This document shows, piece by piece, positions 11,292 through 59,533 of a DNA stretch of 64,000 nt (positions are counted from its first letter, which is position 1; every line of letters begins with the position of its first letter). The position numbers were made by a program, and so were the translations under genes. The stretch covers positions 508,937 through 572,936 of the forward strand of contig CAVVAY010000007.1 of the NCBI GenBank assembly GCA_963746465.1. Direction: 5' to 3'. This stretch comes from an uncultured Actinomycetota bacterium. Its GTDB lineage: Bacteria; Actinomycetota; Actinomycetes; JACCUZ01. The notes under the pieces are model-generated. The model saw only the letters and a program-made list of their open reading frames with translations. It was not told where the DNA came from and searched no databases.

Positions 11292-11373
11292 GCCTTCGGC
11301 CAAGGAACTGCCCCCATGCGTCGGTACGGGTCCGACCGTACCGGTGCCTGACGCCTGCTCCTACGATGCGCGG

Positions 11374-13654: not shown

Positions 13655-13729
13655 CCTGTGCAGCCTCCTCCACCGGGGTCCCCGACGCAGGGCCAGTCTG
13701 CCGCACCGGCATCCTGCGGGGCGGGAGGG

Positions 13730-14179: not shown

Positions 14180-14322
14180 CAGGTGCGGGACGCGCTGCGC
14201 CGGGCGCCGGGCTGCCGGCCGACGGCCGTTGCCCGTGCTCCGCGCAGGAGTGCTGGTGATCACACCAGACGTGTCGTCGGGCCTCCCACCGGCCTTGAGA
14301 GCAGGTCACCCGTACGGCTGAG

Positions 14323-15680: not shown

Positions 15681-16354
15681 CGCTGCCCGAGTGGCTGCGG
15701 CCGCTCGCCGAGGCCGCCGTGCACGTCCGTCCCGAGCAGCTCAGCAGGTTCCTGCCGCCGGACGAGGGCGGCCGGGAGTCGGCGGTGCTCATGCTTTTCG
15801 GCGAGTCCCGGCCCGGCTGGGAGGGGGCCGACGTGCTGCTGATCGAACGGGCCCACGACATGCGCAGCCACGCCGGGCAGGTCGCCTTCCCGGGCGGCGC
15901 GGTCGACCCCGCGGACGAGGACGTGGTCGCCGCCGCGCTGCGCGAGTCGGTGGAGGAGACCGGGCTCGATCCCGCGGGTGTGGACGTCATCGGCACGCTG
16001 CCGGCGTTGTTCCTGCCACCCAGCGGTTTCGTGGTCACCCCGGTGCTCGGCTGGTGGCGCGAGCCGTCGCCGGTGTCCGTGGTGGACACGCGAGAGGTGG
16101 CGTCGGTGCACCGGGTGCCGCTGGCCGAGCTGCTGGACCCCGCCAACCGCTACCAGGTGAGCCACCCCAGCGGCTACGTGGGCGCCGCGTTCGACGCCGC
16201 CGGACTGCTGGTGTGGGGCTTCACCGCCGGCCTGCTCGACCGGATGCTCCGCCTCGGCGGGTGGGAGCTGCCGTGGGACCGTAGCGACGTGCGTGACCTG
16301 CCGGCCGAGCACCTGGCCCGGACGATGCCGGCCGACGAGGTGGGTCGCGCGTGA
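15677..16354 (+). CDS. NUDIX hydrolase, CoA pyrophosphatase-like
   Basis: The GTG start overlaps the TlpA stop as GTGA. The Nudix box is GGAVDPADEDVVAAALRESVEETGL. Confidence 0.8.
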   Translation: MTLPEWLRPLAEAAVHVRPEQLSRFLPPDEGGRESAVLMLFGESRPGWEGADVLLIERAHDMRSHAGQVAFPGGAVDPADEDVVAAALRESVEETGLDPAGVDVIGTLPALFLPPSGFVVTPVLGWWREPSPVSVVDTREVASVHRVPLAELLDPANRYQVSHPSGYVGAAFDAAGLLVWGFTAGLLDRMLRLGGWELPWDRSDVRDLPAEHLARTMPADEVGRA

Positions 16355-17532
16355 ACTGGCTGGACCTCGTGCTGCTGGTCTCGGCGCTGTCGTTCGCCTT
16401 CTCGGGCTACCGGCAGGGCTTCGTGGTGGGCGTACTGGCGTTCGCCGGGTTCCTCACCGGTGGAGTGGTGGGGCTGCTGCTTGCGCCGCGGATGGTCTCG
16501 CGGGTCGAACCCGGCCTCGGGCAGTCGCTGCTCGCGGTGGCCGTGGTGCTGCTGGCCGCGACCATCGGGCAGGTCGCCCTCGGTTGGCTCGGGTCGTTGG
16601 TGCGCAACCGCATCACCTGGCGGCCGGCGCGAGTGCTCGACGCCGGGCTCGGGGCGGCGGTGAGCGTCGTCGCGATGCTCGTGATCGCCTGGTTCCTGGC
16701 ATCCTCGCTGCGTCCCGGGCCGCTGCCGTCGCTGTCGCGCCAGATCAGCGACTCGCAGGTGGTCACCACCGTCGACCAGGTGATGCCGGAGCGCGCCCGG
16801 ACGCTGTTCTCCTCGTTCCGGCAGGTGCTCGACGACAACGAGCTGCCGACGGTGTTCGGCGGTCTGTCCCCGGAGCGGATCAGGCCGGTCCCGCCGCCGG
16901 ACGGCGCGATCACCGGCACCGCAGCGGTCCGTCGGGCCTCGGCCAGCGTGGTGAAGGTCAGCGGCACCGCTGACGACTGCAGCCGGAGCCTCGACGGCAG
17001 CGGCTTCGTCTACGCCCGCCAGCACGTGCTGACCAACGCGCACGTCGTCGCGGGCGTGGACGACCCGCAGGTCCGGGTCAACGGCACCGACCAGCGGCTG
17101 GACGCGGAAGTGGTCCTCTTCGACCCGGACCGTGACCTCGCGGTGCTGTACGTGCCCGACCTCACCGCGACCCCGCTCGACCTGGACGACTCCGGTCACC
17201 GCGGCGACCAGTCCGTGGTCGCCGGCTACCCGGGTGGCGGCCCGTACCGGCTGGTCGCAGCCCGCATCCGCGACACCATCAACGCCCGCGGCCCGGACAT
17301 CTACCACCGCAAGCAGATCACCCGCGAGGTGTTCTCGCTGTACGCCGACGTCGAGCCGGGCAACTCCGGTGGTCCGCTGCTCACCCCGGACGGCGACGTG
17401 TACGGCGTGGTCTTCGCCAAGTCGCTGGACGACGCGGACACCGGCTATGCGCTGACCGTCGACGAGGCCCGCAGCGTCGCGCGCGCCGGCCGGAAGGCGA
17501 CCCGCGCGGTCGACACCGACACCTGCGCCTGA
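16351..17532 (+). CDS. MarP-family membrane-anchored serine protease (S1 chymotrypsin-like)
   Basis: It has multiple N-terminal TM helices and a C-terminal trypsin-like domain (TNAHVV, DLAVL, GNSGGP). The GTG start overlaps the previous stop as GTGA. It is syntenic with Mtb Rv3671c. Confidence 0.85.
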   Translation: MNWLDLVLLVSALSFAFSGYRQGFVVGVLAFAGFLTGGVVGLLLAPRMVSRVEPGLGQSLLAVAVVLLAATIGQVALGWLGSLVRNRITWRPARVLDAGLGAAVSVVAMLVIAWFLASSLRPGPLPSLSRQISDSQVVTTVDQVMPERARTLFSSFRQVLDDNELPTVFGGLSPERIRPVPPPDGAITGTAAVRRASASVVKVSGTADDCSRSLDGSGFVYARQHVLTNAHVVAGVDDPQVRVNGTDQRLDAEVVLFDPDRDLAVLYVPDLTATPLDLDDSGHRGDQSVVAGYPGGGPYRLVAARIRDTINARGPDIYHRKQITREVFSLYADVEPGNSGGPLLTPDGDVYGVVFAKSLDDADTGYALTVDEARSVARAGRKATRAVDTDTCA

Positions 17533-17539
17533 CGAGCAG

Positions 17540-18181
17540 CTAGTACGACGTGATGCTGTCGCCGTCGACCACGATGACCTGGCCGTCGCGGAGCGTGCGG
17601 TGCGGGACACCGGCTGCGCGGTACCGTTCGACGACCGCGTCCATCGCCTCGCTCTCGGGGTGGTCCGGTGACGCGACGTGCGGCACGAAGGCGAAGTCGA
17701 GCACGCCCAGACCGTCCCAGATCGGCTGCTCGCCGTAGACCCGGGTCACCGCGTCCGCGTCGTCCACGAGCTCCAGGCCGCGCAGGCTGGGTGCGAGCAC
17801 GCACGGCCCCGCGCTGTAGCCGGCGTACACGTACGCATCCCGGCCGAGACCGGCGACGATCGCCTGGTCGGCACCGCTGTGGCGCATCGCGTGCCGGAGC
17901 ATGAAGACGTTGCCGCCCCGCAGCCACAGCACGTCATGGCTCTCCAGCACGGCCGCCAGGTCGCTGTCGTCGCCGACGTGGTCACGCAGGTCGACCTCGG
18001 TGGGGCGCAGCCCGAGCGCGGCCAGCGCGACCAGCTCGCGTTCCACGGCTTCCCGGCGGTAGTCCGGCGCGGCGTCGTCCATCGAGTTGGCGATCACGGC
18101 CGCGCGGGCACCCGGCCCGGCCATCGCGACGAGCAGGTCGCTGCGGTCGCCGAGCCGGAACGACGAGAGATAGAGCCGCAT
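17540..18181 (-). CDS. peptidase S51 / class I glutamine amidotransferase-like (peptidase E-like)
   Basis: It is 213 aa from MRLYLSSFRLGD and has the GGNVFML motif. The start overlaps the upstream stop as ATGA at 18181. Confidence 0.7.
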   Translation of the reverse strand: MRLYLSSFRLGDRSDLLVAMAGPGARAAVIANSMDDAAPDYRREAVERELVALAALGLRPTEVDLRDHVGDDSDLAAVLESHDVLWLRGGNVFMLRHAMRHSGADQAIVAGLGRDAYVYAGYSAGPCVLAPSLRGLELVDDADAVTRVYGEQPIWDGLGVLDFAFVPHVASPDHPESEAMDAVVERYRAAGVPHRTLRDGQVIVVDGDSITSY

Positions 18182-18645
18182 CAGCTGCGGAGCCGGACGG
18201 TGCGAGGTGGCTCGCCGTCGACCGGCGGCTCGGCGGCCAGGGCACGCGCGGTGGCGACCAGACCGGCCACGTCGATGCCGTACGGCGGTGCGCCGGCGTA
18301 CGGCTCGATCCGGGCGGCACCGCGGTGCAGCAGGGTGCTCGCTCCGGCGAGGTTGCCGCGGGCCCGGTGGGTGAGGCCGACAGCGAGCTGGGCCAGCCCC
18401 TGCCACAGGTCGCGCTCGACCTCGGGGGCGGCCTTCCAGGTGCCCTCGAGCACTTCGTGGGCGTGGAACGGCCGGCCGGCGTCGATCAGCCGCTGGGCCT
18501 CGACGAGCGACTCCTCGGGCGCCAGCACCAGGTCGTCAGGCACCCGTTCGACACCCTCGGCGTCGTGCTGCAGCGGGCGGCCGAGGCCGTCCCGTGGCCG
18601 GTTGTTGCGCGCCCGGCCGGCCGGGTCGCGATCGCGCTCGGTCAT
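18181..18645 (-). CDS. DUF309 domain-containing protein
   Basis: Translation ...GRPFHAHEVLEGTWK..ERDLWQGLAQLAVGLTHRARGN is 154 aa. Its start overlaps the upstream stop as ATGA at 18642-18645. Confidence 0.7.
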   Translation of the reverse strand: MTERDRDPAGRARNNRPRDGLGRPLQHDAEGVERVPDDLVLAPEESLVEAQRLIDAGRPFHAHEVLEGTWKAAPEVERDLWQGLAQLAVGLTHRARGNLAGASTLLHRGAARIEPYAGAPPYGIDVAGLVATARALAAEPPVDGEPPRTVRLRS

Positions 18646-19511
18646 CCGTGCTCCGGGGAGGGGTCGTCGAGCCAGTCGCGCAGCACGGTGGTGAACGCGG
18701 ACGGGTCCTCCTCCTGCGGGAAGTGGCCGACGCCGGGCATCAGGTGCCACCGGTAGGGCGCCTCGACGTACTTGCCGGAGCCCTGGGCGCTGCCCGGCAG
18801 CACGCAGCGGTCCAGCGCACCGTGCACCTGCAGGGTCGGCACGGTGACGGGGCTCGACATCCGCCGGGCGTACCGGACGCCGTCGGTGCGCGGGATGGAG
18901 CGGACCGCCCAGCGGTAGGACTCCAGGGCGCAGTGCGCGACACCGGGGATCTGCGCGGCCTGCCGGTAGCGCGCCTCGGTCTCGGCGTCCGGGAAGCCGG
19001 GCCCGGCCCACTGCCGGAGCAGGGTGGCCACCGCCTCGGCGTCGTCGGCGACCAACCGGCGCTCCGGCACCATCGGCGCCTGGTAGCCGAGCACGTGGCG
19101 GCTGGCCCGGACCTGCCGGACCTGGGTGAGGTGGGCGCGGCGCAGGCGGCGCGGGTGCGGCATCGAGACGGCCACCAGCCGGCGTACCTGACGGGGGTGC
19201 ACGACCGACAGCGTCCAGGCGACCAGGCCGCCGAGGCCCTGCCCGACCACGGCGGCGTCCCGGTCACCCAGCGACCTGATCACGCCGGACGCGTCCTCGG
19301 CGAGGGTCCGCGGGTCGTAGCCGCGCGGCGGCTTGTCGCTGGCGCCGAAGCCGCGCAGGTCCATCGCGGCGACCCGGTACCCCGCAGCGGCCAGCGCCGG
19401 CAGCTGGTGCCGCCAGGTCCACCAGAACTGCGGGAACCCGTGCAGCAGCAGGACGAGCGGCCCGCTGCCGGCGACCGCGACATGGAACCGGGCACCGTTC
19501 GCCGCGACCAT
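18642..19511 (-). CDS. alpha/beta hydrolase, epoxide hydrolase-like
   Basis: It has the HGFPQFWWTWRHQ motif and nucleophile GQGLGG. The ATG at 19511 (MVAANGARFHV) is preferred. The track start at 19586 would overlap the holin gene. It is syntenic with Mtb ephE. Confidence 0.8.
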   Translation of the reverse strand: MVAANGARFHVAVAGSGPLVLLLHGFPQFWWTWRHQLPALAAAGYRVAAMDLRGFGASDKPPRGYDPRTLAEDASGVIRSLGDRDAAVVGQGLGGLVAWTLSVVHPRQVRRLVAVSMPHPRRLRRAHLTQVRQVRASRHVLGYQAPMVPERRLVADDAEAVATLLRQWAGPGFPDAETEARYRQAAQIPGVAHCALESYRWAVRSIPRTDGVRYARRMSSPVTVPTLQVHGALDRCVLPGSAQGSGKYVEAPYRWHLMPGVGHFPQEEDPSAFTTVLRDWLDDPSPEHG

Positions 19512-27977: not shown

Positions 27978-28121
27978 GTATCGAGCATAGGGACGGCAAA
28001 ATCCGCCCTGTGCGGGGGCGCAACGTTTGCGTGTCGGGCCGAGACGGGTACATCCTGGACCTGGAGCTTCGCTGCGACGAAGCACCCAGTGTCCGGCCCA
28101 TCCCCCCCGGGTCGGACCGCA

Positions 28122-28155
28122 GACGGCCCCCGCTCTCCCCCCGGCGGGGGCCGTC
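28122..28155. promoter_or_regulatory. 10-bp perfect inverted repeat GACGGCCCCC-N14-GGGGGCCGTC in the Tad-locus leader
   Basis: Read from the sequence. It lies about 110 bp upstream of the ssd/cpaE-like start, in the 290-bp divergent intergenic region. Confidence 0.3.
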
Positions 28156-28267
28156 GCATGTCCGTCCCCAGGTCGACCGCCGCTCACCGTCTTCCCCAGA
28201 TGCCTCCGCGGGTCCGTCGGCGGCCGTCGTCCCGGGCCACCGTGGTCACCCGACCTCGGAGGTTGCC

Positions 28268-43953: not shown

Positions 43954-46575
43954 GTGCGGACGCGTCCACTCGGGGATGTCGGGCGGATGGATACCCTGGG
44001 CGCCGTGAGCACCTCGAGCGCCCAGCCGGTCGTGATCCCCGACCACGACCTGCGCGGGGTGCTGCGCATCCCGGCGTTCCGTCAGCTGTGGACCGCCCTG
44101 TCGCTGTCCAGCATGGGTGACTGGCTGGGCCTGCTGGCTCTCACCGCGCTGGCCCCCCTGCTGGCCGACCGGGGCTACGCCGCCGCGAACCTCGCCATCG
44201 CGGGTGTCTTCATCCTCCGGCTCGCCCCGGCGATCGTCATCGGCCCGCTCGCCGGGGTCGTCGCCGACCGGCTCGACCGCCGCCTCACCATGGTTGTCTG
44301 CGACCTCGCCCGGTTCGCGCTCTTCCTGTCGATCCCCTTGATCGGCACCCTGTGGTGGCTGTTCGTCGCGACCTTCCTCATCGAGGTCGCCAGCCTGGTC
44401 TGGATCCCGGCGAAGGAAGCCACGGTCCCCAACCTGGTCCCTCGCGAGCGGCTCGAGACGGCCAACCAGCTCAGCCTGTTCACGACGTACGGCTCGGCCC
44501 CGGTCGCCGCCGCCATCTTCGCCGGGCTGGCGCTGCTCACCGGCATGCTCGACAACGCGGTGCCCGAGCTCGCGGCGGTCGACCTCGCCCTGTACGTCAA
44601 CGCCGCCACCTTCCTGGTCAGCGCCGTCACGATCCTGCGACTGCGGGCCATCCCCGCGCGCCAGCGGCTGGCCGAGGGGGAGCGGCACCCCAGCGTGTGG
44701 CGCACCCTGGTCGAGGGGTGGACCTATGTCGGTCGCACCCGCCTGATCCGCGGCCTCGTCGTGGGCATGCTCGGTGCCTTCGCGGCCGGCGGTGCCGTCA
44801 TCGGCCTGGCTCGCACCTTCGTCACCGACCTGGGAGGTGGCGACCCGGGCTACGGCCTGCTGTTCGGCACCGTGTTCCTCGGCCTGGCGGGCGGCATGCT
44901 CCTCGGCCCCCGGCTGCTGCCCGACTTCAGCCGACGGCGGATGTTCGGGCTGGCCATCGGCGGTGCGGGGCTGTCCTTGGCACTGCTCGGCCTGATCCCC
45001 AACCTGGTGCTGGCCGTGCTGATCACCCTGGTGATCGGCGCGTTCGCCGGCGTCGCGTGGGTCACCGGCTACACGTTGCTCGGTCTCGAGGTGGCCGACG
45101 AGCTGCGCGGCCGGACGTTCGCCTTCGTACAGACCATGGTCCGTGTCGTCCTGGTGGCGGTGCTGGCAGTGTCCCCGCTGCTCGCGGCTGCGTTCGGGCA
45201 GCACGAGGTCGAGGTCACCGACGCGCTCGCCCTCACCTACAACGGGGCGGCCTTCGTCTTCCTGCTCGCGGGTCTGCTCGCCGCGGCGCTGGGCATCGCG
45301 TCGTACCGCCACATGGACGACCGGCGTGGAGTGCCGTTGTCCGCCGACCTCGCTGCCGCCTTCCACAGCGAGCCGGTCGGCCTGCACGGGAGCGGTCCCC
45401 GGAAGGGGTACTTCATCGCGCTGGAAGGAGGCGAGGGTGCCGGGAAGTCGACCCAGGCCCGTGCCTTGGCCCGCTGGCTCGAGTCGCTGGGGCACGACGT
45501 CCTGGTGACCTTCGAGCCGGGCGCCACCGAGGTCGGCCGCCGGCTCCGCTCGGTGCTGCTCGACCATCCCGAGCCGGCCGCAGACGCCGCCGCCGTCGCG
45601 CCACCCGCCCTGTCCGCCCGGACCGAGGCGCTGCTGTTCGCGGCCGACCGGGCCGAGCACGTCGCGACCGTGGTGCGGCCCGCGCTGGCACTGGGTCACG
45701 TCGTGGTCTGCGACCGCTACACCGACTCCTCGGTGGCCTACCAGGGTGCCGGCCGCGAGCTGGCAGGTGCCGAGGTCGGCCGGCTGTCGCGGTGGGCGAC
45801 CGACGGTCTGCTGCCACAGCTGACCGTGGTCCTGGACGTCCCCGCAGCCGACGGCCTGTCCCGGGTCGAGGCCCCGGACCGGTTGGAGTCGGAGCCGCTG
45901 GCCTTCCACGAGCGGGTCCGCGAGCGGTTCCTCGAGCTGGCCCGTCGCGGCGGCTCCCGCTACCTCGTCGTCGACGGGACCCTGCCGCCCGAGGAGATCA
46001 CCGCGGCGATCCGGGCCCGGCTGGAGCCGGCGCTGCCGCTCAGCGCGCAGCAGATCCGGGAGGCCGAGGAGGCCCGGGCTGCCGAGGAGAAGCGGCGACA
46101 GCTCGCCGAGGCGGCCCGTCAGCTCGAGGAGGCCCGGGCCCGGGCCGAGGCCGAGGAGCAGGCCCGGCGGGCGGCGCTGGACGCCGAGGCCCGGGTGGCG
46201 CAGGCCGCCGCCGAGGCAGCCGCACTGGCCGAGCAGCGCAGGCTGCAGGAGCAGGCCGAGGCCGCCGAGCGAGCCCGGCTGGCGGCGATCGCAGCCGCGG
46301 AGGCCGCCAAGGTGCGCGAGGAGCATGCCCGGCAGCGCGCGCTGCAGGCCGAGCAGCGACGCCGGCAGAAGGAGGCCCACCGGCCGCCCCGGGCCCAGCC
46401 CACCCGGCGTTCGGTGGGCGACGAGACCACGGTCCCGACGGCGGTGCCTGCCGCCGAGCCACCCACCCGTCCGCTCAGCCTCAGCGACGAGCTGTTCGGC
46501 ATCGGCACCGACGACGAGACGGACGACAGCACGTTGCAGCTGCCCCGCGTCGACAACCGGCGCGACGACCGGTGA
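43954..46575 (+). CDS. tmk: bifunctional MFS transporter / dTMP kinase fusion with a long Ala/Glu/Arg-rich coiled-coil and disordered C-terminus
   Basis: The N-terminal ~480 aa are multi-TM MFS. They are followed by a thymidylate kinase domain (ALEGGEGAGKSTQ P-loop, DRY, lid region), then about 190 aa of AEEARA-type repeats. It is one continuous 873-aa ORF. Confidence 0.8.
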   Translation: MRTRPLGDVGRMDTLGAVSTSSAQPVVIPDHDLRGVLRIPAFRQLWTALSLSSMGDWLGLLALTALAPLLADRGYAAANLAIAGVFILRLAPAIVIGPLAGVVADRLDRRLTMVVCDLARFALFLSIPLIGTLWWLFVATFLIEVASLVWIPAKEATVPNLVPRERLETANQLSLFTTYGSAPVAAAIFAGLALLTGMLDNAVPELAAVDLALYVNAATFLVSAVTILRLRAIPARQRLAEGERHPSVWRTLVEGWTYVGRTRLIRGLVVGMLGAFAAGGAVIGLARTFVTDLGGGDPGYGLLFGTVFLGLAGGMLLGPRLLPDFSRRRMFGLAIGGAGLSLALLGLIPNLVLAVLITLVIGAFAGVAWVTGYTLLGLEVADELRGRTFAFVQTMVRVVLVAVLAVSPLLAAAFGQHEVEVTDALALTYNGAAFVFLLAGLLAAALGIASYRHMDDRRGVPLSADLAAAFHSEPVGLHGSGPRKGYFIALEGGEGAGKSTQARALARWLESLGHDVLVTFEPGATEVGRRLRSVLLDHPEPAADAAAVAPPALSARTEALLFAADRAEHVATVVRPALALGHVVVCDRYTDSSVAYQGAGRELAGAEVGRLSRWATDGLLPQLTVVLDVPAADGLSRVEAPDRLESEPLAFHERVRERFLELARRGGSRYLVVDGTLPPEEITAAIRARLEPALPLSAQQIREAEEARAAEEKRRQLAEAARQLEEARARAEAEEQARRAALDAEARVAQAAAEAAALAEQRRLQEQAEAAERARLAAIAAAEAAKVREEHARQRALQAEQRRRQKEAHRPPRAQPTRRSVGDETTVPTAVPAAEPPTRPLSLSDELFGIGTDDETDDSTLQLPRVDNRRDDR

Positions 46576-47747
46576 GCCAGCCGGGCGCGGGGATCTGGTC
46601 CGACCTGGTCGGCCAGCAGCCGACGGTCGCCGTGCTGCAGCGCGCCGTGGCTGGGGCCGCAGCCACCCGTCGCGGGGAGCCGGGCTCCGGCATGACGCAT
46701 GCCTGGCTGTTCACCGGTCCACCCGGGTCGGGCCGGTCCACCGCGGCCCGAGCGTTCGCCGCTGCGCTGCAGTGCCCCGACGAGGGCTGCAGCGAGTGCG
46801 CGGCCTGCCGCAGCGTGCTCGGCGGCGGTCACCCCGATGTCGAGGTCGTCAACACCCGCAAGCTGTCCATCGGCGTCGACGATGCCCGGGCCCTGGTCTC
46901 TCGCGCCGGTCGGCATCCAGCGCTCGGTCGGTGGCAGGTGATGGTGGTCGAGGACGCCGACCGGCTCACCGACCAGGCCGGAAACGCGCTGCTCAAGGCC
47001 ATCGAGGAACCGACACCGCACACCGTGTGGCTGCTCTGCGCGCCGGCCGTCGACGACGTCCTGCCCACGGTCCGCTCCCGCTGCCGGCACCTGTCGTTGC
47101 GCACCCCACCGACCGACGCGGTCGCCGACGTGCTGGTCCGTCGCGACGGGGTCGACCCGGCGATGGCGTCGTTCGCCGCCAGGGCGGCGCAGGGCCACAT
47201 CGGCCGGGCCCGCCGGCTGGCCACCGACGAGGAGGCCCGGCTGCGCCGGCACGCCGTACTACGGCTGCCGCTCTCGCTGGGCGAGCTCAGCGCCGCGTTG
47301 CGGGCCGCCGGCGACCTGGTCGACGCAGCCACCGCGGAGGCCAACGAGCAGGCCGCCACGCTGGCTGCGTCCGAGGCCGACGAGATGCGCCGTGGTCTGG
47401 GCGTCGGGCCGGGCGCCCGGCAGCCCGCCGGCGCGGCGGCCCAGCTCAAGGAGCTGGAGGGCGAGCAGAAGAAGCGCGCCACCCGCACCAGGCGGGACGC
47501 CATCGACCGCGCGCTGATCGACCTGGCCGGCTTCTACCGCGACGTCCTCGCCCTCCAGGCGCAGGCAGACGTCGAACTCGTGAACGACGAGATGCGTGAC
47601 GCGGTCAGCGGGGTGGCCCGGTCGTCGAGCCCCGAGTCGACGCTGCGCCGGATCGACGCGATCCTCGCCGCCCGGACGGCGATCGATGCGAACGTCGCCC
47701 CGCTGCTCGCGGTCGAGGCGATGACCGTCGCGCTGCGCCGCGGCTGA
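46572..47747 (+). CDS. holB: DNA polymerase III subunit delta-prime
   Basis: It has the AAA+ P-loop GPPGSGRST, a zinc module CPDEGCSECAAC and the sensor motif SRC. The GTG overlaps the upstream stop. Confidence 0.85.
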   Translation: MSQPGAGIWSDLVGQQPTVAVLQRAVAGAAATRRGEPGSGMTHAWLFTGPPGSGRSTAARAFAAALQCPDEGCSECAACRSVLGGGHPDVEVVNTRKLSIGVDDARALVSRAGRHPALGRWQVMVVEDADRLTDQAGNALLKAIEEPTPHTVWLLCAPAVDDVLPTVRSRCRHLSLRTPPTDAVADVLVRRDGVDPAMASFAARAAQGHIGRARRLATDEEARLRRHAVLRLPLSLGELSAALRAAGDLVDAATAEANEQAATLAASEADEMRRGLGVGPGARQPAGAAAQLKELEGEQKKRATRTRRDAIDRALIDLAGFYRDVLALQAQADVELVNDEMRDAVSGVARSSSPESTLRRIDAILAARTAIDANVAPLLAVEAMTVALRRG

Positions 47748-51129: not shown

Positions 51130-51189
51130 GCCGGACCCACCGGATGCCGTAGACTTTCCCGCCGTGCCGCGGCTCAGGTCGCGGCGCAT

Positions 51190-51263
51190 GCCGCCTTAGC
51201 TCAGTCGGCTAGAGCGACGCACTCGTAATGCGTAGGTCATCGGTTCGACTCCGATAGGCGGCT
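51190..51263 (+). tRNA. tRNA-Thr (anticodon CGT)
   Basis: The sequence GCCGCCTTAGCTCAGTCGGCTAGAGCGACGCACTCGTAATGCGTAGGTCATCGGTTCGACTCCGATAGGCGGCT folds by hand into a cloverleaf with anticodon loop CTCGTAA. CCA is not encoded. Confidence 0.9.
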
Positions 51264-51266
51264 CTA

Positions 51267-51312
51267 CGACGAGGCCTCTGACCTGGCGGTCCCAGGTCGG
51301 AGGCCTCGTTCG
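51267..51312. terminator. long near-perfect inverted repeat CGACGAGGCCTCTGACCTGG-cggt-CCCAGGTCGGAGGCCTCGTTCG immediately 3' of tRNA-Thr
   Basis: Read from the sequence. It is a stem of about 20 bp with two mismatches. It is either a tRNA terminator or a structured boundary element. Confidence 0.45.
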
Positions 51313-51358
51313 ATCTCAGGGACGCAGAACGTCCGGAACCCGCCCTACCGTCATCCAC

Positions 51359-51895
51359 ATGGCAAACAACCACGTGACGTTGACGGAGCCGCCTCGGAAC
51401 GGGTCCGAGATCGACACGCTCGTCGGGTCGCTCGAGCGGGGGCGGCGCTACCTGCGCTGGAAGTGCGCCGGGCTCGATGCGACCGGCCTGAGGGCGACCC
51501 TCGGACCGTCCACCGTCACTCTCGGCGGGCTGCTCAAGCACCTGGCCTACATGGAGGATGCGAACTTCTCCCTCGCTCTGCACGGCAACGAGCGGGCCGC
51601 GCCCTGGCGAGGCGTCGAGCAGCCCGGTGAGTGGGCCTTCACATCGGCCGTGCACGACAGCCCGGAGGAGCTGTTCGCCTTGTGGGAGAGCTCGGTCGCG
51701 GCGGCCAGGGCGAATATCGTCAAGGCCGACCGCCTCGGCGGCCCGGGCTTCACCGCGAGCTATGCCGGGCAGACCTACAGCCTTCGGCGGATCCTCGCGG
51801 ACATGGTCGAGGAGTACCTGCGGCATGTCGGTCACGCGGATCTGATTCGCGAGTCCATCGACGGACTGGTCGGCGAGGACCCGGACGACGACTGA
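51359..51895 (+). CDS. DinB-family / DUF664 protein (mycothiol-dependent maleylpyruvate isomerase N-terminal-like fold)
   Basis: The product is 178 aa with the conserved LRWKCAGL..., HLAYMEDANF and EEYLRHVGHADLIRE features. Confidence 0.7.
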   Translation: MANNHVTLTEPPRNGSEIDTLVGSLERGRRYLRWKCAGLDATGLRATLGPSTVTLGGLLKHLAYMEDANFSLALHGNERAAPWRGVEQPGEWAFTSAVHDSPEELFALWESSVAAARANIVKADRLGGPGFTASYAGQTYSLRRILADMVEEYLRHVGHADLIRESIDGLVGEDPDDD

Positions 51896-51907
51896 CGCAC
51901 CCTGGCG

Positions 51908-52885
51908 ATGTCCGCGGGATGGGACCATGGTGGGGTGCCCGACGAGGAACGGTCCGGCGTGCGGCTGACCAACCTGGACCAGCCGTTGTTCGCCGACGCC
52001 GGCGCCACCAAGCGCGACCTGGTCGACTACCTGGATGCCGTTGCCGACCGGTTCGTGCCCGTGCTCGCCGGGCGCGCGTTGAGCGTCGTCCGGGTGCTCC
52101 GCGGACAGAAACCGTTCATGCAGAAGAACCTGCCCGCCTACGCTCCTGGGTCGATCGCGACTGTTGACATTCCGACCCAGGACGGGAAGCGGGTCGTCCA
52201 CTACCCGGTCTGCGACGACCGCGAGAGCCTGCTGTGGTTCGCCAACCAGCGGGCGGTCGAGTACCACCCCACGCTGTTCCAGGGTCTGGCTTCCGACCTG
52301 CCCACGCACCTGGTGGTGGACATCGACCCACCTGCCGGGACCGACGCATTCGCGCGCGCAGTGCAGGCCGCCCTTCTCGTACGCACTGTTCTCGGCGATG
52401 CCGGGATGACCGCGCTGCCCAAGACCAGCGGCGCGAAGGGGGTGCACGTCGTGGTCCCCCTGGCCTCGGGCCAGTCGGCCATGGACGCCGCGGCCGCCAC
52501 CCGCGCGATCGCCGCCCGCGCGGAGCGACTGGACCCGGGGCTCACGACGACCGCCTTCGTCGTGGAGGAGCGGGGCGACAAGGTCTTCCTCGACTCGACG
52601 CGAGCGGGTGGCGCGACCGTGGTGGCGACGTACAGCCCCCGGGTCCGCCCCGGCGTCCCGGTGTCGTTCCCGGTGGCCTGGGACGACCTCGCCGGCGCAT
52701 CGCCGGCCGACTTCACCCTGGCGAGCGTCCCCCGGCTGCTCGCCGACTCCGACCCGTGGGCCGCACTGCCGCCGCCACAGGTCATCGATCCCGGTCTGGT
52801 CGAAGAGGGACACACCATCCCGGTCGCGCGGGTGGCGGCGATGCACGAAGGCAAGCGCCGCGCGCGAGCCCGCCGGGAGAGCTGA
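51908..52885 (+). CDS. stand-alone NHEJ polymerase/primase domain protein (LigD Pol domain)
   Basis: The 325-aa product has conserved LigD-Pol motifs (PLFADAGATKRDL, LVVDIDP, TSGAKGVHVVVPL). Confidence 0.85.
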   Translation: MSAGWDHGGVPDEERSGVRLTNLDQPLFADAGATKRDLVDYLDAVADRFVPVLAGRALSVVRVLRGQKPFMQKNLPAYAPGSIATVDIPTQDGKRVVHYPVCDDRESLLWFANQRAVEYHPTLFQGLASDLPTHLVVDIDPPAGTDAFARAVQAALLVRTVLGDAGMTALPKTSGAKGVHVVVPLASGQSAMDAAAATRAIAARAERLDPGLTTTAFVVEERGDKVFLDSTRAGGATVVATYSPRVRPGVPVSFPVAWDDLAGASPADFTLASVPRLLADSDPWAALPPPQVIDPGLVEEGHTIPVARVAAMHEGKRRARARRES

Positions 52886-52906
52886 CGCGCGCCTAGACTC
52901 CGCCAC

Positions 52907-55712
52907 GTGACGCGCTCGGAACAGGGGACGAGGGTGCCGGCGCTCCTGCTCGAGACGAAGCTCTACGTTCCGCAGTCACCGCGTCGGTTGGTGCAGCGCT
53001 CTCGACTGAGCGAGCGGTTGGACGGCGCCTCCGGGTCGAAGCTGATCCTCGTCTCCGCGCCCGCCGGCTTCGGCAAGTCGACGCTGCTGGCCGAGTGGCT
53101 GGCGAACGGACAGGCCGGGCAGGGCACCGCTGGCGATCGGCGTTCTGTCGCCTGGGTGTCTCTCGACCCTGCAGACAACCAGCCCGCAACCTTCTGGACG
53201 TACGTCGTCGCGGCGCTCCGCACGGTGATACCCGGCGTCGGTGCGGACGCACTCGCGCTCCTCCAGGCGCCGCAACCGGCGCCGATCACCACCGTGCTCA
53301 CGACACTGCTCAACGACCTCGGCGGTGTGGACCGCGACATCGTGCTGGTCCTCGACGACTACCACGTCGTCGACGCGGCCGAGGTGCAGGACGGGATGGC
53401 CTTCCTGCTCGACCATCTTCCTCCGCAGCTGCACCTGGTGATCGCGAGCCGGGCCGACCCGGGACTGCCGCTGGCAAGGCTGCGGGCGCGCGGCGAGCTC
53501 GCCGAGATCCGCGCCGCCGACCTGCGGTTCAGCGCGGAGGAGGCGGTGGCGTACCTCAACGGGGTGATGGGACTGCGGCTCACGGCTGCCGACGTGGCAA
53601 CCCTGGAGGGCCGCACCGAGGGTTGGATCGCCGCCCTGCAGCTGGCAGCGCTGTCGATGCAGGGCCGGGATGACGCCGCCGACTTCATCGCCGGCTTCGC
53701 GGGCGACGCCCGGTACGTCGTGGACTACCTCGTCGAGGAGGTGCTGGCCCGGCAGCCCGACGGGGTCCACGACTTCCTGCTGCAGACCTCCGTCCTGGAC
53801 CGGCTCAGCGGCGCGCTGTGCGACGCCGTCACCGGCGGCACCGGTGGCACTGGTGGCACTGGTGGCACTGGTGGCAAGGCAATGCTGGAGTCGCTGGACC
53901 GGGCCAACCTGTTCCTGGTGCCGCTGGACGACCGGCGCCGGTGGTACCGCTACCACCACCTGTTCGCCGACGTGCTGCGAGCCCGCCTGCACGACGAGCG
54001 GCCCGACGTCGTCCCCGCGCTGCACCGGCGCGCGAGCGACTGGTACGAGGCGAACGGTGAGCGGGCCGTCGCCGTCGAGCACGCTCTGGCCGCCGCGGAC
54101 TTCGACCGCGCGGCGGACCTGGTCGAGCTGGCGGCGCCGGCTCTGCAGCGGGCCCGGCAGGAGGGCACATTGCGTCGGTGGATGGAGGCCATCCCCGAGG
54201 CGCACTTCCGGGTCAGGCCGGTTCTCAGCAACTCGTACGTCGGATCCCTCATGTCCACCGGTCAGATCGAGGGAGTCGAGCCGTACCTGCTCAACGCCGA
54301 GCGGTGGCTGGATGCCATGTCGGCCGAAGGTCACGGACCTCCTGACCGGCCGCCGGAGATGGTGGTCGTGGACGAGGAGGCGTTCCGGAGGCTGCCCACG
54401 TGGGTCGCCGTGCACCGCGCCGGGCAGGCACTGGTGCTCGGCGACCGGGCCGGTTGCCTCACCCACGCCGGTCGGGCGCGAGACCTGGCCGGTCCCGACG
54501 ACCACGTCGGGCGAGGAGCAGCGTCGGCACTCATCGGGTTGGCGTCATGGGGCGACGGGGACGTCAAGGCTGCTCAGGCGGGCTACTCGGAGTCGTGGAA
54601 GCACATGCATGCCGCCGGCCACATCGCCGACATCCTCGGTCTGGCGATCACGCTCGGGGACCTTCACGTCGTCCAGGGACGGCTCGGTGACGCCATGCGC
54701 ACTTACGAGGAGGCGCTGCGACTCGCCGCCGAGCAGGACGGGCCGGTCCTCCGGGGGACCGCCGACATGTACGTCGGAATGGCCGCACTCCAGCGGGAGC
54801 GAGGCGATCTCGGGACCGCGAACGAGCTCCTTGTCCGCAGCCAGGAGCTCGGCCCGCACCTGGCCCTGCCGCAGAACCCTCACCGCTGGCGGATCGCGAA
54901 GGCTCGGGTCCTGGAGGCCGAAGGAGACCTCGAGGGCGCGGTCCAGCTGCTCGACGAGGCGGAGCAGGTGTACGCCGGCGACTTCTCCCCCGACGTGCGG
55001 CCGATCGCAGCGACGAGAGCGCGGGTGCTGATCGCGCAGGGGAGATGGGCCGACGCTCTGAGCTGGGCGCGCGACCGAGAGCTGTCCGTGGACGACGACC
55101 TCAGCTATCTGCGCGAGTACGAGCACGTCACCCTGGCCAGAGCCCTGCTGGCCCGGTGCAGGACCGAGCGTGCCGAGCCAGCCCTGCGACGGGGCACTCG
55201 GGCTGCTGCGGCGGCTGCTCCAGGCAGCCGAGGCCGGCGGCCGGACCGGAACCGTGATCGAGGTCCTGGTGCTGCAGGCGCTCGCGCAGCAGGTGCGCGG
55301 CGACAACTCGGCGGCACTGGTGCCACTGGTGCAGGCCCTGACCTTGGCCGAGCCGGAAGGCTACGTCCGGCTCTTCGTCGACGAGGGCGCGCCCATGGCC
55401 GTGCTCGTGGAGGCAGCCGCCGAACGCGGGATCGCGCCGACGCTACGCCAGACGACTGCTCACGGCCTTCGACGACGCAGACCGAGACCGCCGCTCCGAC
55501 GCAACCAGGGCCTGGTCGAGCCGTTGAGCGGGCGAGAGCTCGACGTGCTGCGGCTGCTGCGAACCGACCTCGGCGGTCCGGACATCGCCCGCGAGCTCGT
55601 GGTGTCGCTGAACACCGTGCGCACCCACACGAAGAACATCTACGCCAAGCTCGGCGTGAACAACCGCCGGGCAGCGGTCCGCCGGGCCGAGGAGCTCGAC
55701 CTGCTGCGGTGA
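52907..55712 (+). pseudogene. LuxR/MalT-family ATP-dependent transcriptional regulator interrupted by a +1 frameshift at a G4 run near 55191-55194
   Basis: The N-terminal P-loop NTPase (SAPAGFGKSTLL) and TPR region are in the frame starting at 52907 up to ...RTERAEPALRR. The C-terminal part, including the LuxR HTH (LSGRELDVLRLLRTDLGGPDIARELVVSLNTVRTHTKNIYAKLGV), is in the +1 frame and ends at 55712. Removing one G restores ...EPALRRALGLLRRLLQAAEAGG.... A sequencing error cannot be excluded. Confidence 0.6.
53834..53875. repeat. 9-bp tandem repeat (GGTGGCACT, about 4.7 copies) encoding a (GGT)n linker inside the LuxR regulator
   Basis: Read from the sequence. It encodes TGGTGGTGGTGGTGGK in frame. 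Confidence 0.7.
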
Positions 55713-55721
55713 TGCCGGTGC

Positions 55722-56965
55722 TCAGCGGACGCGCTTCACCGGCAGGATGGCGGCGGCGCCGAGGAGGGCGCTGACGCCGGCGACGGCGTACAGCACGCCG
55801 TAGCTGCCGTCCGCGACCGCCAGGATGGCCGGCGCCATCGCAGGGGCCAGGGAGAACGGCAGCGCTCCGGCGATGTTGAACACGCCCAGGTCCTTGGCGG
55901 CGCTGCCCTTGTCCGGCAGCACGTCGGCGGCCAGCGCGAGGTCGACGGCCACGTACACGCCGAACCCCAGGCCGCCGATGGCCATGCCGACCAGGAACCC
56001 GTTGACGTCGGTGGCGAGGGCGATGACGAACAACGCCAGGCCGTACACGGTCGACGCGGCGAGGACGAAGAGCTTCCGGCGGCCGGTCCGGTCGGAGAGC
56101 CTGCCCCCGAGCAGCGAGGCAGCGACCACCACCGTGGACTGGACCAGGGTGCCGAGGAACACCTGGCCCGGCACGTCGTCCTCGGCGGTGCCGATCTTCT
56201 CCAGCAGGTAGTACGTCTGGTAGGTCGCCAGGAACGCGTAGGCCAGCACGAACAGGAAGCGGCTGGCGAAGGCCCAGGCGAAGTCCGGAGCCTTGCGCGG
56301 GTTGAAGTAGAACGTGCTGGCGAGCTCTCGCAGCGACCAGGCCGGCTTCTCCGCAGCGGGCCAGACCGCGGTCGTCCAGGGTCGCGGCGAAGAGCAGGAT
56401 GAAGAACCCGCCGACGGCGCACGGGACCATGAACATGGCGAGCTGGTTGCCGGTGAACAGCTTCACCAGGAAGGTGCCGGTCACCGACGCGATCGGCACG
56501 CACACGCCGAGGACGCCGGAGACCGAGCCCCGCTGCGCCGGCGGGACCTGGTCGGGCAGGACCGCGACGAGCGCTGCGAGCAGCGCGTTGAGGAACACCT
56601 GGGCGATGCACCAGCCGACGAGGACCACGGGGATCGTGGGCGCCAGGGCCACGATGAGGATGCCGAGCGAGCCGCCGAGCAGTCCGACGACGATCCACGG
56701 CCGCCGCATGCCCCACCGGGACGAGGTCCGGTCGCTCAGCCTGCCGAAGAACGGGTTGGCGAACATCGCCAGCAGGGCGCGCGACCCCGGCCACCAGCGA
56801 CAGGCTGTTCGGTGCCTGCTCGGTCCCGACCAGGGACTTGACCTTCAGGGCCAGGGTGACCAGCAGCGGCGCGAGGAACAGCAGGCTGGTGCTGATGTAG
56901 GCCAGCGTGTAGCGGGCGATGAAGCCCGGTCCGACCCGGGGTACGGCGGGCGACTCAGGCTCCAC
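55722..56965 (-). pseudogene. MFS transporter gene interrupted by two frameshifts
   Basis: Three successive frames each carry clean MFS-like segments with high GC3. They switch near 56765-56800 and near 56335-56365. The first runs 56965 to about 56780 (MEPESPAVPR...SLSLVAGV). The second runs 56766 to about 56370 (MFANPFFGRLSDR...LFAATLDDR). The third runs from about 56360 to 55722 (...WSLRELASTFYFNPRKAPDFAW...ILPVKRVR). Confidence 0.6.
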
Positions 56966-57015
56966 CGCGGCGAGTCTGCCAGCCGGGCGGCCGCGCGTCG
57001 GAGTTCACCAGCTGA

Positions 57016-57033
57016 ATCACCAGGTGTGGTGAT
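57016..57033. promoter_or_regulatory. perfect palindrome ATCACCA-ggtg-TGGTGAT in the divergent MFS / small-ORF-MMPL promoter region
   Basis: Read from the sequence. It is a candidate operator. Confidence 0.35.
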
Positions 57034-57067
57034 CCCCGCTCACCACATCCGCTCCTACCTTCCGGTC

Positions 57068-57331
57068 ATGAACCAGGCACCAGCCGCGACCGGCGGCCCG
57101 TCCCAGGCCGGGCAGTACGAGATCCGGATCGAGGGCCACCTCGACACCCGGTGGACCGCCTGGTTCGACGGGCTGGCCCTCACCCACGAGACCGATGGCA
57201 CAACGGTCCTGCACGGCCCGGTCGTCGACCAGGCCGCGCTGCACGGCCTGCTCCAGAAGGTCCGCGACCTCGGCCTGCCCCTGGTCTCGGTCATCCACGT
57301 TGCACCCGACTCTCACAGGAGCACACCATGA
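57068..57331 (+). CDS. hypothetical small protein (87 aa) translationally coupled to the MMPL gene
   Basis: The ORF MNQAPAATGG...YEIRIEGHLDTRWTAWFDGLALTHETDGTTVLHGPVVDQAALHGLLQKVRDLGLPLVSV has good GC3. Its stop overlaps the MMPL ATG as ATGA at 57328-57331. Confidence 0.45.
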   Translation: MNQAPAATGGPSQAGQYEIRIEGHLDTRWTAWFDGLALTHETDGTTVLHGPVVDQAALHGLLQKVRDLGLPLVSVIHVAPDSHRSTP

Positions 57332-59533
57332 ACCGCTTCATCCGCCGGATCGGCGACTTCAGCGCACGCAGGCCATGGACGACGATCGGCGCGTGGGCGG
57401 TCCTCGCCGCGCTCGTGGCGGTGCTCTCCGGCGCCGTCGGTGGCGCGTTCGCCGACGACTTCAGCGCACCGGGCAGCGAGAGCGCCGAGGCCATGGAGCT
57501 GCTCGAGGAACGCTTCCCGGCGGAGGCGGGCGGCACTGCGATCGCCGTGTTCGCGGCTCCCGAGGGCGCAGCAGGTGGCCGGCTTCCGGGTCGGCATCGA
57601 GTCGGCCCTGGCGCAGGTCGCGACGATCGACCACGTCGCCGCCGTGAGCGACCCGTTCGAGTCGGGCCGGGTGTCGGCCGACGGGCGGGTCGCGTTCGCG
57701 GAGATCGCGCTGGACGTGCCGTCGACCGAGTTCGGTCGTGACACCGCCACCGAGGTCGTGGCCGCCCTCGAGCCAGCCCGTTCCGGCGGTGTGCAGGCCG
57801 AGTTCGGCGGGGACGCCGCGTTCCTCAACGCCGAGAAGAAGTCCTCTCCGGCGGAGGCGGTCGGCCTTCTCGCCGCGCTCGTCATCCTTCTCGTCGCCTT
57901 CGGCACCGTCGTGGCCGCGCTGGTGCCGATCGTTCTCGCCCTGGTCGCCGTCGGCGTCGGTCTCGCTGGCATCGTGGTCCTGGCCGGCGGCCTGACGATC
58001 TCCACCGCCGCACCGAGCATCGGCGCCCTGGTCGGACTGGGCGTGGGCATCGACTACGCGTTGTTCATCGTCGCCAGGTACCGCGAGAACCGCACCGCGG
58101 GACAGGTCAACTCGCAGGCGCTGTCCGCGGCGATGGGCTCCTCCGGCACTGCGGTCTTCTTCGCCGGCGGCACCGTGGTCCTTGCGATGGCTGCCCTCGC
58201 GCTCACCGGCGTGGGCTTCCTCGCCTCCATCGGGCTCAGCACCTCGATCGTGGTGCTGTTCGCGGTGGCCACCGCCATCACGCTTCTCCCGGCACTTCTG
58301 ACGTTGCTGGGCAACCGCATCGACGCGGGCCGGATCGTCGGCCGGCGTCGGGTCGCCAAAGCCGCCGAGGCCACCGCGTGGTGGCGGCTGGCGCACCGGA
58401 TCTCGGCCCGGCCCTGGCCGTACCTGGTGGCGGGCACGCTCCTGCTCCTGACGCTTGCTGCCCCGGCGCTGTCGCTGGACACCGGTTTCCCGGACGCTGG
58501 TGACAACCCGAAGAGCCAGACCGAGCGGACGGCGTACGACATGCTCGCCGACGGCTTCGGCCCCGGCTTCAACGCGCCCCTGTCCGTCGTCCTCGACCTG
58601 CAGGACACCGGAGTCGGCGCCGACGACGTTCCCGAGCTGGCGGCGCAGATCGCGGCCGACCCGGGCGTCGCGGAGGTCGGCGAGCCGCGGGTCAGCGCCG
58701 ACGGTGACACCGTGGTGCTCCCCACGCTCCCCACCACCGAGCCGTCCGACCCCGCCACCGTGCAGACGCTCGAGCGGATCCGCGCCATCACCCCCGCCGG
58801 TGTCTACGTGACCGGGGCGACTGCGCTGACCCTCGACCTGGACAAGCAGCTCACCGACACGCTGCCGCTGTTCATCGGCGCGATCCTGGCCACCTCGATC
58901 CTGCTGCTGATGATCGTGTTCCGGTCGGTCACCGTCCCGCTGAAGGCGGCGGTGATGAACTTGCTGTCCATCGGCGGCGCCTACGGAGTCGTGGTCGCGG
59001 TCTTCCAGTGGGGCTGGCTGGGTGGGGTGTTCGGCCTCGACGGCACCTACCGGATCGCCTCGCCGCTGCCGGTGATCTTCTTCGCCGTCCTGTTCGGGCT
59101 CTCGATGGACTACGAGGTGTTCCTCGTCTCCCGCATCCGCGAGGCCTACCAGCAGACCGGTGACAACGCCGAGTCCGTCGCCCGCGGGCTGGCGTCCAGC
59201 GGACGGGTCATCACCTCCGGCGCGCTGATCATGGTCGTGGTGTTCCTCTCGTTCGTCACCGACCCCTCGCCGTTCGTGCAGATGATCGGGCTGGGGCTGT
59301 CCACCGCCATCGCGATCGACGCCACCGTCGTCCGCATGGTCCTGGTGCCGGCGACCATGGCGCTGATGGGCCGGGCCAACTGGTGGCTGCCCGGTTGGCT
59401 CGACCGGCTGCTTCCACACCTGAGCCTCGAGGCCGAGGAGCCCGTGCGCGAGGCCACCCCGGTGCCGGTGCCGGCCCAGGGCCAGGCACCGAGCTCACCG
59501 GTCCAGGAGGTGGAGGTCAGCAGCGCATCCTGA
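57328..59533 (+). pseudogene. MMPL-family RND-type transporter with a frameshift near 57565-57575
   Basis: The true N-terminus (MNRFIRRIGDFSARRPWTTIGAWAVLAALVAVLSG...AIAVFAAPEG) is in the frame of the 57151 track ORF. The rest (QQVAGFRVGIESALAQVATIDHVAAVSDPF... to 59533) is in the frame of the 57440 ORF. A 1-nt insertion or 2-nt deletion in gagggcgcagcag explains it. A sequencing error cannot be excluded. Confidence 0.6.

Follow-up and report, generated by a model that had tools for sequence, protein, structure and literature searches.

A solitary LigD-type polymerase gene past tRNA-Thr(CGT) in an uncultured Actinomycetota bacterium: a variable junction at the edge of a conserved gene block, and probably not a mobile islet

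The locus

This report concerns a stretch of 64,000 nucleotides (hereafter the window) from an uncultured Actinomycetota bacterium (GenBank assembly GCA_963746465.1, contig CAVVAY010000007.1), and a gene within it that encodes a stand-alone polymerase of the LigD type (hereafter Pol). The gene lies a short distance past a tRNA gene. Genes for tRNAs are, of course, classic integration sites, and an initial annotation of the window had proposed that the DNA following this one might be a small accessory islet or, failing that, simply a variable region. The features at the center of the question are these, with coordinates counted from the first nucleotide of the window:

51190..51264, plus strand: tRNA-Thr (anticodon CGT), found by ARAGORN and by the Rfam tRNA model (69.8 bits)
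51269..51309, plus strand: GC-rich hairpin with arms at 51269-51286 and 51292-51309, 18 bp including one G-U pair, and a 5-nt loop
51359..51895, plus strand: gene for an MST/DUF664 (DinB-fold) protein of 178 aa (PF04978, E = 9e-30), hereafter the MST gene
51935..52885, plus strand: gene for Pol, a single-domain LigD-type Prim-Pol (PolDom) of 316 aa (PF21686); its open reading frame (ORF) is open from an ATG at 51908

As descriptions of what is there, the earlier assignments stand, with small adjustments. ARAGORN and Rfam both recognize the tRNA. The inverted repeat is real, but its 20 bp are corrected to the 18 bp given above. The gene called DinB/DUF664 matches PF04978 over the full profile (positions 1-149 of 149; 104.5 bits against a gathering threshold of 27). 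The gene called a stand-alone LigD polymerase domain matches PF21686 (LigD_Prim-Pol), again over the full profile (1-254 of 254; 241.2 bits against a cut-off of 27.4), and has no other domain.

A conserved block that ends in tRNA-Thr and a hairpin

Relatives were found with holB (46572-47747) as the anchor gene, which gave 80 loci from species-representative genomes; the proteins and tRNAs of the window were mapped onto these loci for comparison of gene order. The nearest loci, judged by holB, come from metagenome-assembled genomes (MAGs) of uncultured Actinomycetota and Sporichthyaceae, at 68-94% identity. Two sources recur below: L001, the closest relative (holB 94% identical), and BP_173, which is the MAG of locus L011 (holB 75% identical).

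The order topA, tmk, holB, (glpD), TAP-like hydrolase, tRNA-Thr(CGT) is found from the closest MAGs to Streptomyces, Embleya, Streptacidiphilus, Nonomuraea, and others. This upstream block is kept in approximately 80 relatives, and wherever the tRNA is present, the block ends with it. Here, tRNA-Thr(CGT) closes a gene block that is conserved across the class Actinomycetes. The tRNA gene of the window itself carries no encoded CCA (it reads CTA at 51262-51267; L001 and L007 have CCA). Thus, its 3' end must come from a CCA-adding enzyme, by addition or repair.

The hairpin begins four bases past the tRNA. In RNAfold it lengthens to approximately 20 pairs with a bulge and has a free energy of -40.2 kcal/mol (z = -4.8); none of 200 shuffled sequences folded equally well. 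A 16-mer from the hairpin has no dispersed copies in the window. The notion that the hairpin is a dispersed repeat was rejected, as its arm sequence is not repeated elsewhere there.

Among the 48 actinomycete relatives, the majority have a strong hairpin directly 3' of the tRNA, with sequences that differ in distant genera. The hairpin is near-identical in L007, L003, and L005, and one compensatory pair is found among five sequences. Folding energies were compared between the first 60 nt past the tRNA in the 48 loci and 158 control 60-mers from further downstream. The means were -26.6 kcal/mol for the loci and -21.8 kcal/mol for the controls (Mann-Whitney P = 7e-5), and 60% of the loci reached -25 kcal/mol or lower, against 25% of the controls. 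The hexamer CAGGTC, or its complement GACCTG, falls within 50 nt past the tRNA in 22 of the 48 loci, against 6.6% of controls, and in most cases its first base lies 8-12 nt past the tRNA. The motif, as CAGGTC(A) or the complement, is seen again in the close MAGs, Streptomyces, Embleya, and Streptacidiphilus, usually inside the arms of the hairpin (51279-51299 in the window). If a terminator stem keeps CAGGTC over such distances, a processing signal is one possibility. L001 is without the 5' arm of the hairpin and retains a degenerate 3' arm (L001 19825-19870).

Because the hairpin is conserved across relatives, it forms a unit with the tRNA gene and is not the border of inserted DNA. The initial annotation had made the palindrome one of the marks of an islet; it is instead a conserved feature of the tRNA gene.

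A breakpoint past the hairpin

Neither the MST gene nor Pol follows tRNA-Thr in any of the approximately 48 relatives that share the upstream block. The first genes past the tRNA are unlike in every relative that was checked individually. They encode a DivIVA-like protein, an NlpC/P60 protein, and a DD-carboxypeptidase in L002, a two-component system in L005, ThrE in L006, and a Dyp peroxidase in L008. A Pfam survey of 119 ORFs within 4 kb past the tRNA in 32 relatives tells the same story. The ORFs match 94 families, none of which is found in more than three ORFs; among the 25 families listed there is no integrase, and one Mutator transposase.

The DNA past the hairpin is a synteny breakpoint, and it carries different ordinary genes in each lineage. 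Gene order past tRNA-Thr is not conserved among relatives, and the fallback of the initial annotation, a region that is simply variable, was the right reading.

Comparison with L001 places the breakpoints most closely. The flanks of the relatives reach 10 kb, and L001 covers 1.35 kb past tRNA-Thr. Nucleotide alignments delimit one further feature:

51310..52890, no strand: segment that differs from L001

Homology with L001 covers the tRNA and what is left of the 3' arm of the hairpin, stops, and resumes 5-8 nt past the Pol stop at CCTAGACTCCGCCACGTGACG, which is identical in the two and contains TAGACT. Between the breakpoints, L001 holds a gene for a 182-aa GNAT acetyltransferase on the opposite strand. 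Beyond them comes the same regulator gene as in the window, which L001 alone among the relatives has after tRNA-Thr. In tblastx comparisons of the relatives' downstream DNA with the window, most matches were noise driven by GC content; the sole real match was the regulator of L001.

Two other readings of these ends were tried and dropped. An exact 10-nt direct repeat, CCACGTGACG, stands at 51370-51379 and 52903-52912, in the starts of the MST and regulator genes. As a junction repeat it was rejected; by our own estimate, chance alone would yield approximately ten 10-mers of this kind in 1.9 kb at such a GC content, the repeat lies off the breakpoints, and homology with L001 extends 12 nt beyond it. 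An ancestral slot shared by MST and GNAT genes was likewise abandoned, since the GNAT of L001 is only weakly and partially similar to the GNATs that lie beside an MST gene in L168.

One might, of course, suspect that the adjacency is itself false, the product of a metagenome mis-join at the tRNA or the hairpin. The closest relatives are MAGs, so the window may be one too, and the frameshifts downstream, described below, could be assembly errors. However, L001 was assembled independently, and it joins tRNA-Thr to the same regulator within approximately 1 kb. Further, composition is continuous over the junction. A mis-join is therefore scarcely credible.

The block to which Pol belongs

Downstream of Pol lie the following features:

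52894..52899, plus strand: -10-like hexamer TAGACT, 7 nt before the GTG of the regulator (52907), at the point where L001 homology resumes
52907..55712, plus strand: gene for a MalT-like LuxR-family regulator (AAA_16 and TPR_MalT in Pfam), with a frame switch at ~55171-55227
55725..56941, minus strand: gene for an MFS transporter, split over three frames, as seen by tblastn with the 448-aa L086 orthologue
57068-57310: small ORF, 73% identical to an 87-aa ORF of BP_173
57328..59533, plus strand: gene for an MMPL transporter (Pfam MMPL), with a frame switch at ~57560

The regulator is 71% and 65% identical, in its two frames, to an intact 926-aa orthologue in L086. Against the L086 orthologues, the MFS transporter shows 75-86% identity in frames -1, -2, and -3, and the MMPL transporter 80-82% in two frames. 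The TAGACT at 52894..52899 would be the promoter of a leaderless regulator mRNA.

These genes bear directly on the origin of Pol. BP_173 carries, one after another, CopC, CopD, Pol, the MalT-like regulator, MFS (on the minus strand), an 87-aa ORF, MMPL, and ABC. The BP_173 proteins are collinear with the window from 51935 to 59530 at 65-86% amino acid identity overall (82% for Pol), and the collinearity ends with the small ORF and MMPL. The junction between the Pol stop and the regulator start aligns with BP_173 even at the nucleotide level. Thus, Pol is linked by descent to the block of regulator and transporters, not to the tRNA or the MST gene. In BP_173, this block sits behind copC/copD, away from any tRNA. 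A gene so joined to its downstream neighbors is hard to see as the incoming gene of an islet, which is how the initial annotation had placed it.

The same annotation had described the regulator and transporters as frameshifted, and comparison with orthologues bears this out. Set against the intact orthologues of BP_173, they contain four frame switches, at ~55171-55227, ~56350, ~56770, and ~57560. No such switches were seen in roughly 47 kb of conserved genes upstream, and the switch sites are not long homopolymers. Either the gene block is decaying or the assembly is locally in error.

Tests for an integrative element

The main alternative invokes an ancient integrative element, now degraded, with the 3' end of tRNA-Thr as its point of entry. 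Such an element would have brought the MST and Pol genes, and perhaps the regulator and transporters, before losing its integrase and attR. The known use of tRNA genes as integration sites speaks for it, as does the absence of the stretch from the same position in all sampled relatives. The presence/absence polymorphism expected of an island is seen here (the MST and Pol genes are absent past tRNA-Thr in relatives, and a GNAT gene holds their place in L001), and lineage-specific genes come right after the tRNA, as they do in tRNA-associated islands and the integrative elements of actinomycetes. Frameshifts in adjoining genes are also frequent in decaying islands.

However, the other expectations for such an element fail. 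No integrase or recombinase was found in the Pfam-scanned ORFs of 51-64 kb. The tRNA 3' 29-mer and a 17-nt core of the T-arm, searched with up to 3 mismatches, match the tRNA alone in the 64 kb; no partial duplicate of the tRNA 3' end that might serve as attR is there. On both points the initial annotation, which had seen neither integrase nor repeat, was borne out. The sole boundary-like repeat, direct or inverted, around the segment was a 10-mer.

Composition is equally unremarkable. The GC content over 48-64 kb is 0.69-0.72, like that of the flanks, and GC skew is flat. Codon usage was referred to 20 confident genes of the window. The MST gene (z -1.1) and Pol (z -1.2), each with a third-position GC content of 0.89, fall inside the spread of the reference genes, and the adjoining conserved hydrolase lies lower. 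Both genes look native.

Nor do the close homologues of Pol travel on mobile DNA. In a tblastn search of plasmids and phages, matches to Pol at 60% identity or more came only from two chromosome records, those of Nonomuraea gerenzanensis (66%) and Nocardia farcinica (64%); true plasmids gave only LigD genes, at approximately 35%. The position of the variable DNA is also wrong. Elements that target tRNAs recombine inside the 3' half of the tRNA, whereas here a conserved hairpin separates the tRNA from the variable DNA. The Pol-to-MMPL block of BP_173, remote from any tRNA, and the ordinary genes at the site in the 32 surveyed relatives point the same way. A degraded element is, on this evidence, very improbable, and with no integrase, att repeat, or compositional anomaly, the proposal of a small accessory islet inserted at the tRNA is not supported.

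The MST gene as a neighbor of Pol

Judged from its family, the product of the MST gene would be a mycothiol-dependent transferase-like protein, that is, a thiol-dependent detoxification enzyme. The name "DinB" should not mislead; DNA polymerase IV (DinB) was ruled out, as the family is one of the DinB/YfiT-like fold. The likeness to the mycothiol S-transferase/DUF664 family rests on the full-length Pfam match, but none of the NCBIfam models match the protein. PF04978 is abundant and multi-copy in Actinomycetes (L168 has a tandem pair). The search gave 5381 matching homologues of the MST protein, just four of them more than 70% identical. Two orthologues, each 85% identical, have unrelated surroundings that include neither a tRNA nor Pol.

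Might the MST and Pol genes, nevertheless, be a two-gene operon for the response to damage, combining thiol detoxification with repair synthesis? They share a strand, and the 12-39 nt that separate them contain no hairpin. Both families are tied to the biology of stress or stationary phase (PMC5663958, and the DinB-fold name). If the two worked together, however, they should be found together elsewhere. A metagenome scan added 80 Pol loci, so that 87 could be compared in all, and in none of the 87 does an MST homologue or a tRNA lie beside Pol. Clustering of the genes beside Pol gave 141 clusters, of which 116 have a single member, and no single Pfam family is present in more than five of 150 neighbors. 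The neighbors are all different in L081, L082, L083, and a 2.4-kb JGI contig. No Pol stands near the two 85% MST orthologues, and Pol follows copD in BP_173. An operon of this kind is improbable, and the pairing of the two genes within an islet finds no support in the same comparisons.

Pol as a single-domain polymerase

Forty close homologues of Pol start at the residue aligned to V10, which implies that the start of Pol is probably the GTG at 51935 (316 aa) and not the upstream ATG. At least 8000 homologues are present in the protein database, of which the top 120 share 80-91% identity with Pol and are approximately 321 aa long.

Among sequences of solved structures, the best matches are Prim-PolC (5OP0/6SA0, 1e-34) and the LigD-Pol of Mycobacterium tuberculosis (2IRU, 6e-31). 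Other solved relatives include the Methanocella polymerase for non-homologous end joining and the POL domain of Pseudomonas aeruginosa LigD. An AlphaFold model of Pol, built on a shallow alignment, is of moderate quality (pLDDT 63.9) and was used for fold assignment only. Foldseek matched it to 5OP0, 6SA0, 2IRU, 2FAO, and 5DMU with a probability of 1.00 and TM-scores of 0.59-0.70. The best match was again Prim-PolC (5OP0; TM-score 0.67 over 313 columns), and the POL domains of LigD gave 0.59-0.70 over approximately 280 columns. The model thus predicts that Pol has the AEP/PolDom fold.

The catalytic residues are in place. An acidic triad (D138, D140, D229) and the residues S174, G175, K177, and H180 of an SGxxGxH motif align to the corresponding motifs of 5OP0, and all seven are invariant in the 87 homologues. 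Of the positions that at least 97% of homologues share, Pol departs from two (T107S and G224D), and other members from 0-4. With its catalytic residues kept and a normal number of deviations, Pol looks functional as far as its sequence can tell.

The initial annotation found it notable that the gene has no ligase or Ku beside it. The absence is real: none of the approximately 45 ORFs of the 64-kb window covered by the Pfam domain scan carries a Ku or ATP-dependent ligase domain. Nor are Ku or ATP-dependent ligase among the families common to at least two of the 150 neighbors of 80 Pol homologues. A solitary PolDom gene is, however, already known biology (PMC5663958, PMC5124664). Four Prim-Pols, with the domain of LigD included, are described for Mycobacterium smegmatis, and several of these stand alone (PMC5663958). 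Streptomyces has two or three separate single-domain PolDom genes, with polK by kuA, polR by ligC, and polO (PMC5124664). Multiple LigD-like PolDom copies per genome are, indeed, usual in Actinobacteria (PMC5663958, PMC5124664).

How does Pol compare with these? The stand-alone PolDoms of M. smegmatis and the polK, polR, and polO products of Streptomyces ambofaciens are like Pol in being approximately 320 aa in length, in having a single AEP domain, and in being encoded by a separate gene. Two of them, polO and PolD2, also resemble Pol in not being described beside a ku or ligase gene (PMC5663958, PMC5124664). The likeness is one of description. The clade of Pol differs from them in having its own invariant C-terminal motif, and it is 63-66% identical to genes of Nocardia farcinica and Nonomuraea gerenzanensis. 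Within 7 kb of a clade member, a second PolDom, a paralogue at 30% identity, is found in some metagenomic contigs, namely L135 (79-876) and L147 (6123-6920); in L147 the two paralogues are divergently adjacent.

Prim-PolC (MSMEG_6301; 5OP0, 6SA0) is the best match to Pol in sequence and fold, at approximately 31% identity. The two have in common the Asp triad, SGxxGxH, the Asn and second Lys of the phosphate pocket, and a C-terminal extension past the LigD-Pol core. The 5'-phosphate pocket of Prim-PolC comprises N20, K23, Y25, K35, and P65 (PMC7442782). In the alignment to 5OP0, Pol keeps N22 and K35, but has Q25 for K23, L27 for Y25, and Leu for P65. The first two replacements are not peculiar to the window; Q25 is conserved in 78 and L27 in 85 of the 87 clade members.

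The C-terminal extensions differ as well. The HMMER alignment of Pol to 5OP0/6SA0 ends at residue 289, before the extension of Prim-PolC begins. The named residues of Loop 3 in Prim-PolC (P316, Y317, Y321, P322, K323, M324; pin P320, N321) are absent from the tail of Pol, whose 36 residues include no Tyr and no Asn. The extension of Pol is predicted by the model to lie in the same place as that of Prim-PolC, and an analogous role is possible. Unlike Prim-PolC, Pol has no ligC next to it, either among the scanned ORFs of the window or among the families listed for the surveyed neighbors. With no ligC nearby and the Loop 3 residues missing, the identification of Pol as Prim-PolC was rejected.

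In place of Loop 3, the clade has a nearly invariant C-terminal motif, L-[IV]-E-E-G-x-x-I-P-x-A-R-V-x-A-M-H-E-G-K-R-R-A-R. Eleven of its positions are invariant among 69 homologues of 55-70% identity, and the motif is present in Nocardia farcinica (L170, ~5850-5948). Written as LVEEGHTIPVARVxAMHEGKRRARARR, and located at residues 297-323 of Pol (window 52796-52885), it is the most conserved part of the clade. Searched against the PDB, the tail gave no match.

The remaining comparison is with LigD. The POL domain of LigD (Rv0938 in M. tuberculosis, and that of P. aeruginosa) shares its Pfam family and fold with Pol. Pol, in contrast, carries neither a ligase nor a phosphoesterase domain and has no ku nearby. 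A multidomain LigD was rejected as an assignment, since Pol scores 214 bits against 373 for NCBIfam TIGR02776 and 155 against 989 for NF007210. So was a canonical LigD POL; Pol falls below the NCBIfam ligD_pol cut-off (197.9 against 214.7 bits).

By analogy with these relatives, Pol would fill short gaps or extend ends, with a preference for ribonucleoside triphosphates, in stationary phase (PMC5663958, PMC7442782). Its clade, a group of thousands of proteins of approximately 320 aa (from soil Actinomycetes, Nocardia, and Nonomuraea) with no fixed gene neighbor, may conceivably be a functionally distinct, uncharacterized branch of the Prim-Pols, a suggestion that we make tentatively and hold to be rather doubtful.

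Other features of the window

Upstream of the tRNA, one further element accompanies the gene:

51150..51155, plus strand: -10-like hexamer TAGACT, 34 nt upstream of tRNA-Thr, the putative tRNA promoter

In an alignment of the window with L001, L003, L005, and L007, this TAGACT is invariant amid a spacer that has otherwise diverged, and it presumably acts as the promoter of the tRNA gene. A scan for the sigma-70 consensus promoter returned no sites.

The DNA from holB to the hydrolase is plastic too. L001 has a 5-kb insertion before glpD (11173-16296), and L007 has no glpD, with approximately 7.7 kb of different DNA between holB and the hydrolase (11134-18875). In tblastn, topA and tmk of L001 look split, which suggests frameshift errors in that assembly. 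Nonomuraea guangzhouensis (L077) has two copies of tRNA-Thr 1.5 kb apart (15964-16040 and 17521-17600), and a similar hairpin follows each of them, which suggests a local duplication at this landmark.

Further upstream, the first 47.7 kb of the window match in gene content the Rv3682 to Rv3644c region of M. tuberculosis. Rfam finds there a 6C RNA, an actinobacterial small RNA (55.4 bits; 28088-28159, plus strand). It lies within a very GC-rich part (26-33.7 kb) whose ORFs are nearly without Pfam matches (one weak T2SSF).

Discussion

The reading that we consider probable is a simple one. A conserved tRNA gene with its hairpin stands at the edge of a block of core genes, and a stretch of native genes that is prone to rearrangement follows it; no mobile element targeted to the tRNA is involved. 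Here, an older chromosomal block of PolDom, MalT-like regulator, MFS transporter, small ORF, and MMPL transporter would have been put beside tRNA-Thr by a rearrangement in a recent ancestor shared with L001. The MST gene would then lie between the hairpin and this block as an unrelated neighbor of Pol, and in L001 a GNAT gene would have replaced both. Pol itself would act in trans and pass nicks to an ATP-dependent ligase of the LigC or LigD type, possibly together with Ku, both encoded elsewhere in the genome.

Several points weigh against this reading, or at least against parts of it. The first concerns the hairpin. Hairpin terminators without tails have been described in high-GC Actinobacteria. 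Of the two marks of an intrinsic terminator, a GC-rich stem-loop directly past the gene is present, but the stem is followed by TTCGATCTC, which has no U-tract, and a terminator consensus scan gave 0 sites. From its position and its conservation only, the hairpin would be either a tail-less terminator or a structure at the 3' end of the tRNA gene.

The second concerns scope. The direction of change, whether Pol was deleted in L001 or gained in the window, would be read from a single outgroup, BP_173, and the 1.35 kb of L001 past tRNA-Thr set the reach of the closest comparison. As only 25 families were listed, a lone integrase, Ku, or ligase may be among the surveyed ORFs. Since the survey of partners covers the 64-kb window, a Ku, LigC, or LigD elsewhere in the genome is an assumption. 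Last, the frameshifts could mean that selection is relaxed on the whole block, Pol included.

The outcome is, nonetheless, a clean negative. A tRNA gene, a long palindrome, and genes outside the core together resembled an island, and at this locus the palindrome and the tRNA are not to be taken as the borders of one. What is mildly new lies in the polymerase, where the C-terminal motif of the clade and a remodeled 5'-phosphate pocket have apparently been neither solved nor characterized. If the clade is indeed a distinct branch, its tail could recruit a partner, such as Ku, a ligase, or an enzyme of base excision repair, or could grip DNA in a way unlike Loop 3. For the Actinomycetes generally, topA-tmk-holB-hydrolase-tRNA-Thr(CGT), together with the hairpin, is a useful and deeply conserved landmark, whose downstream edge is a recurrent point of rearrangement.

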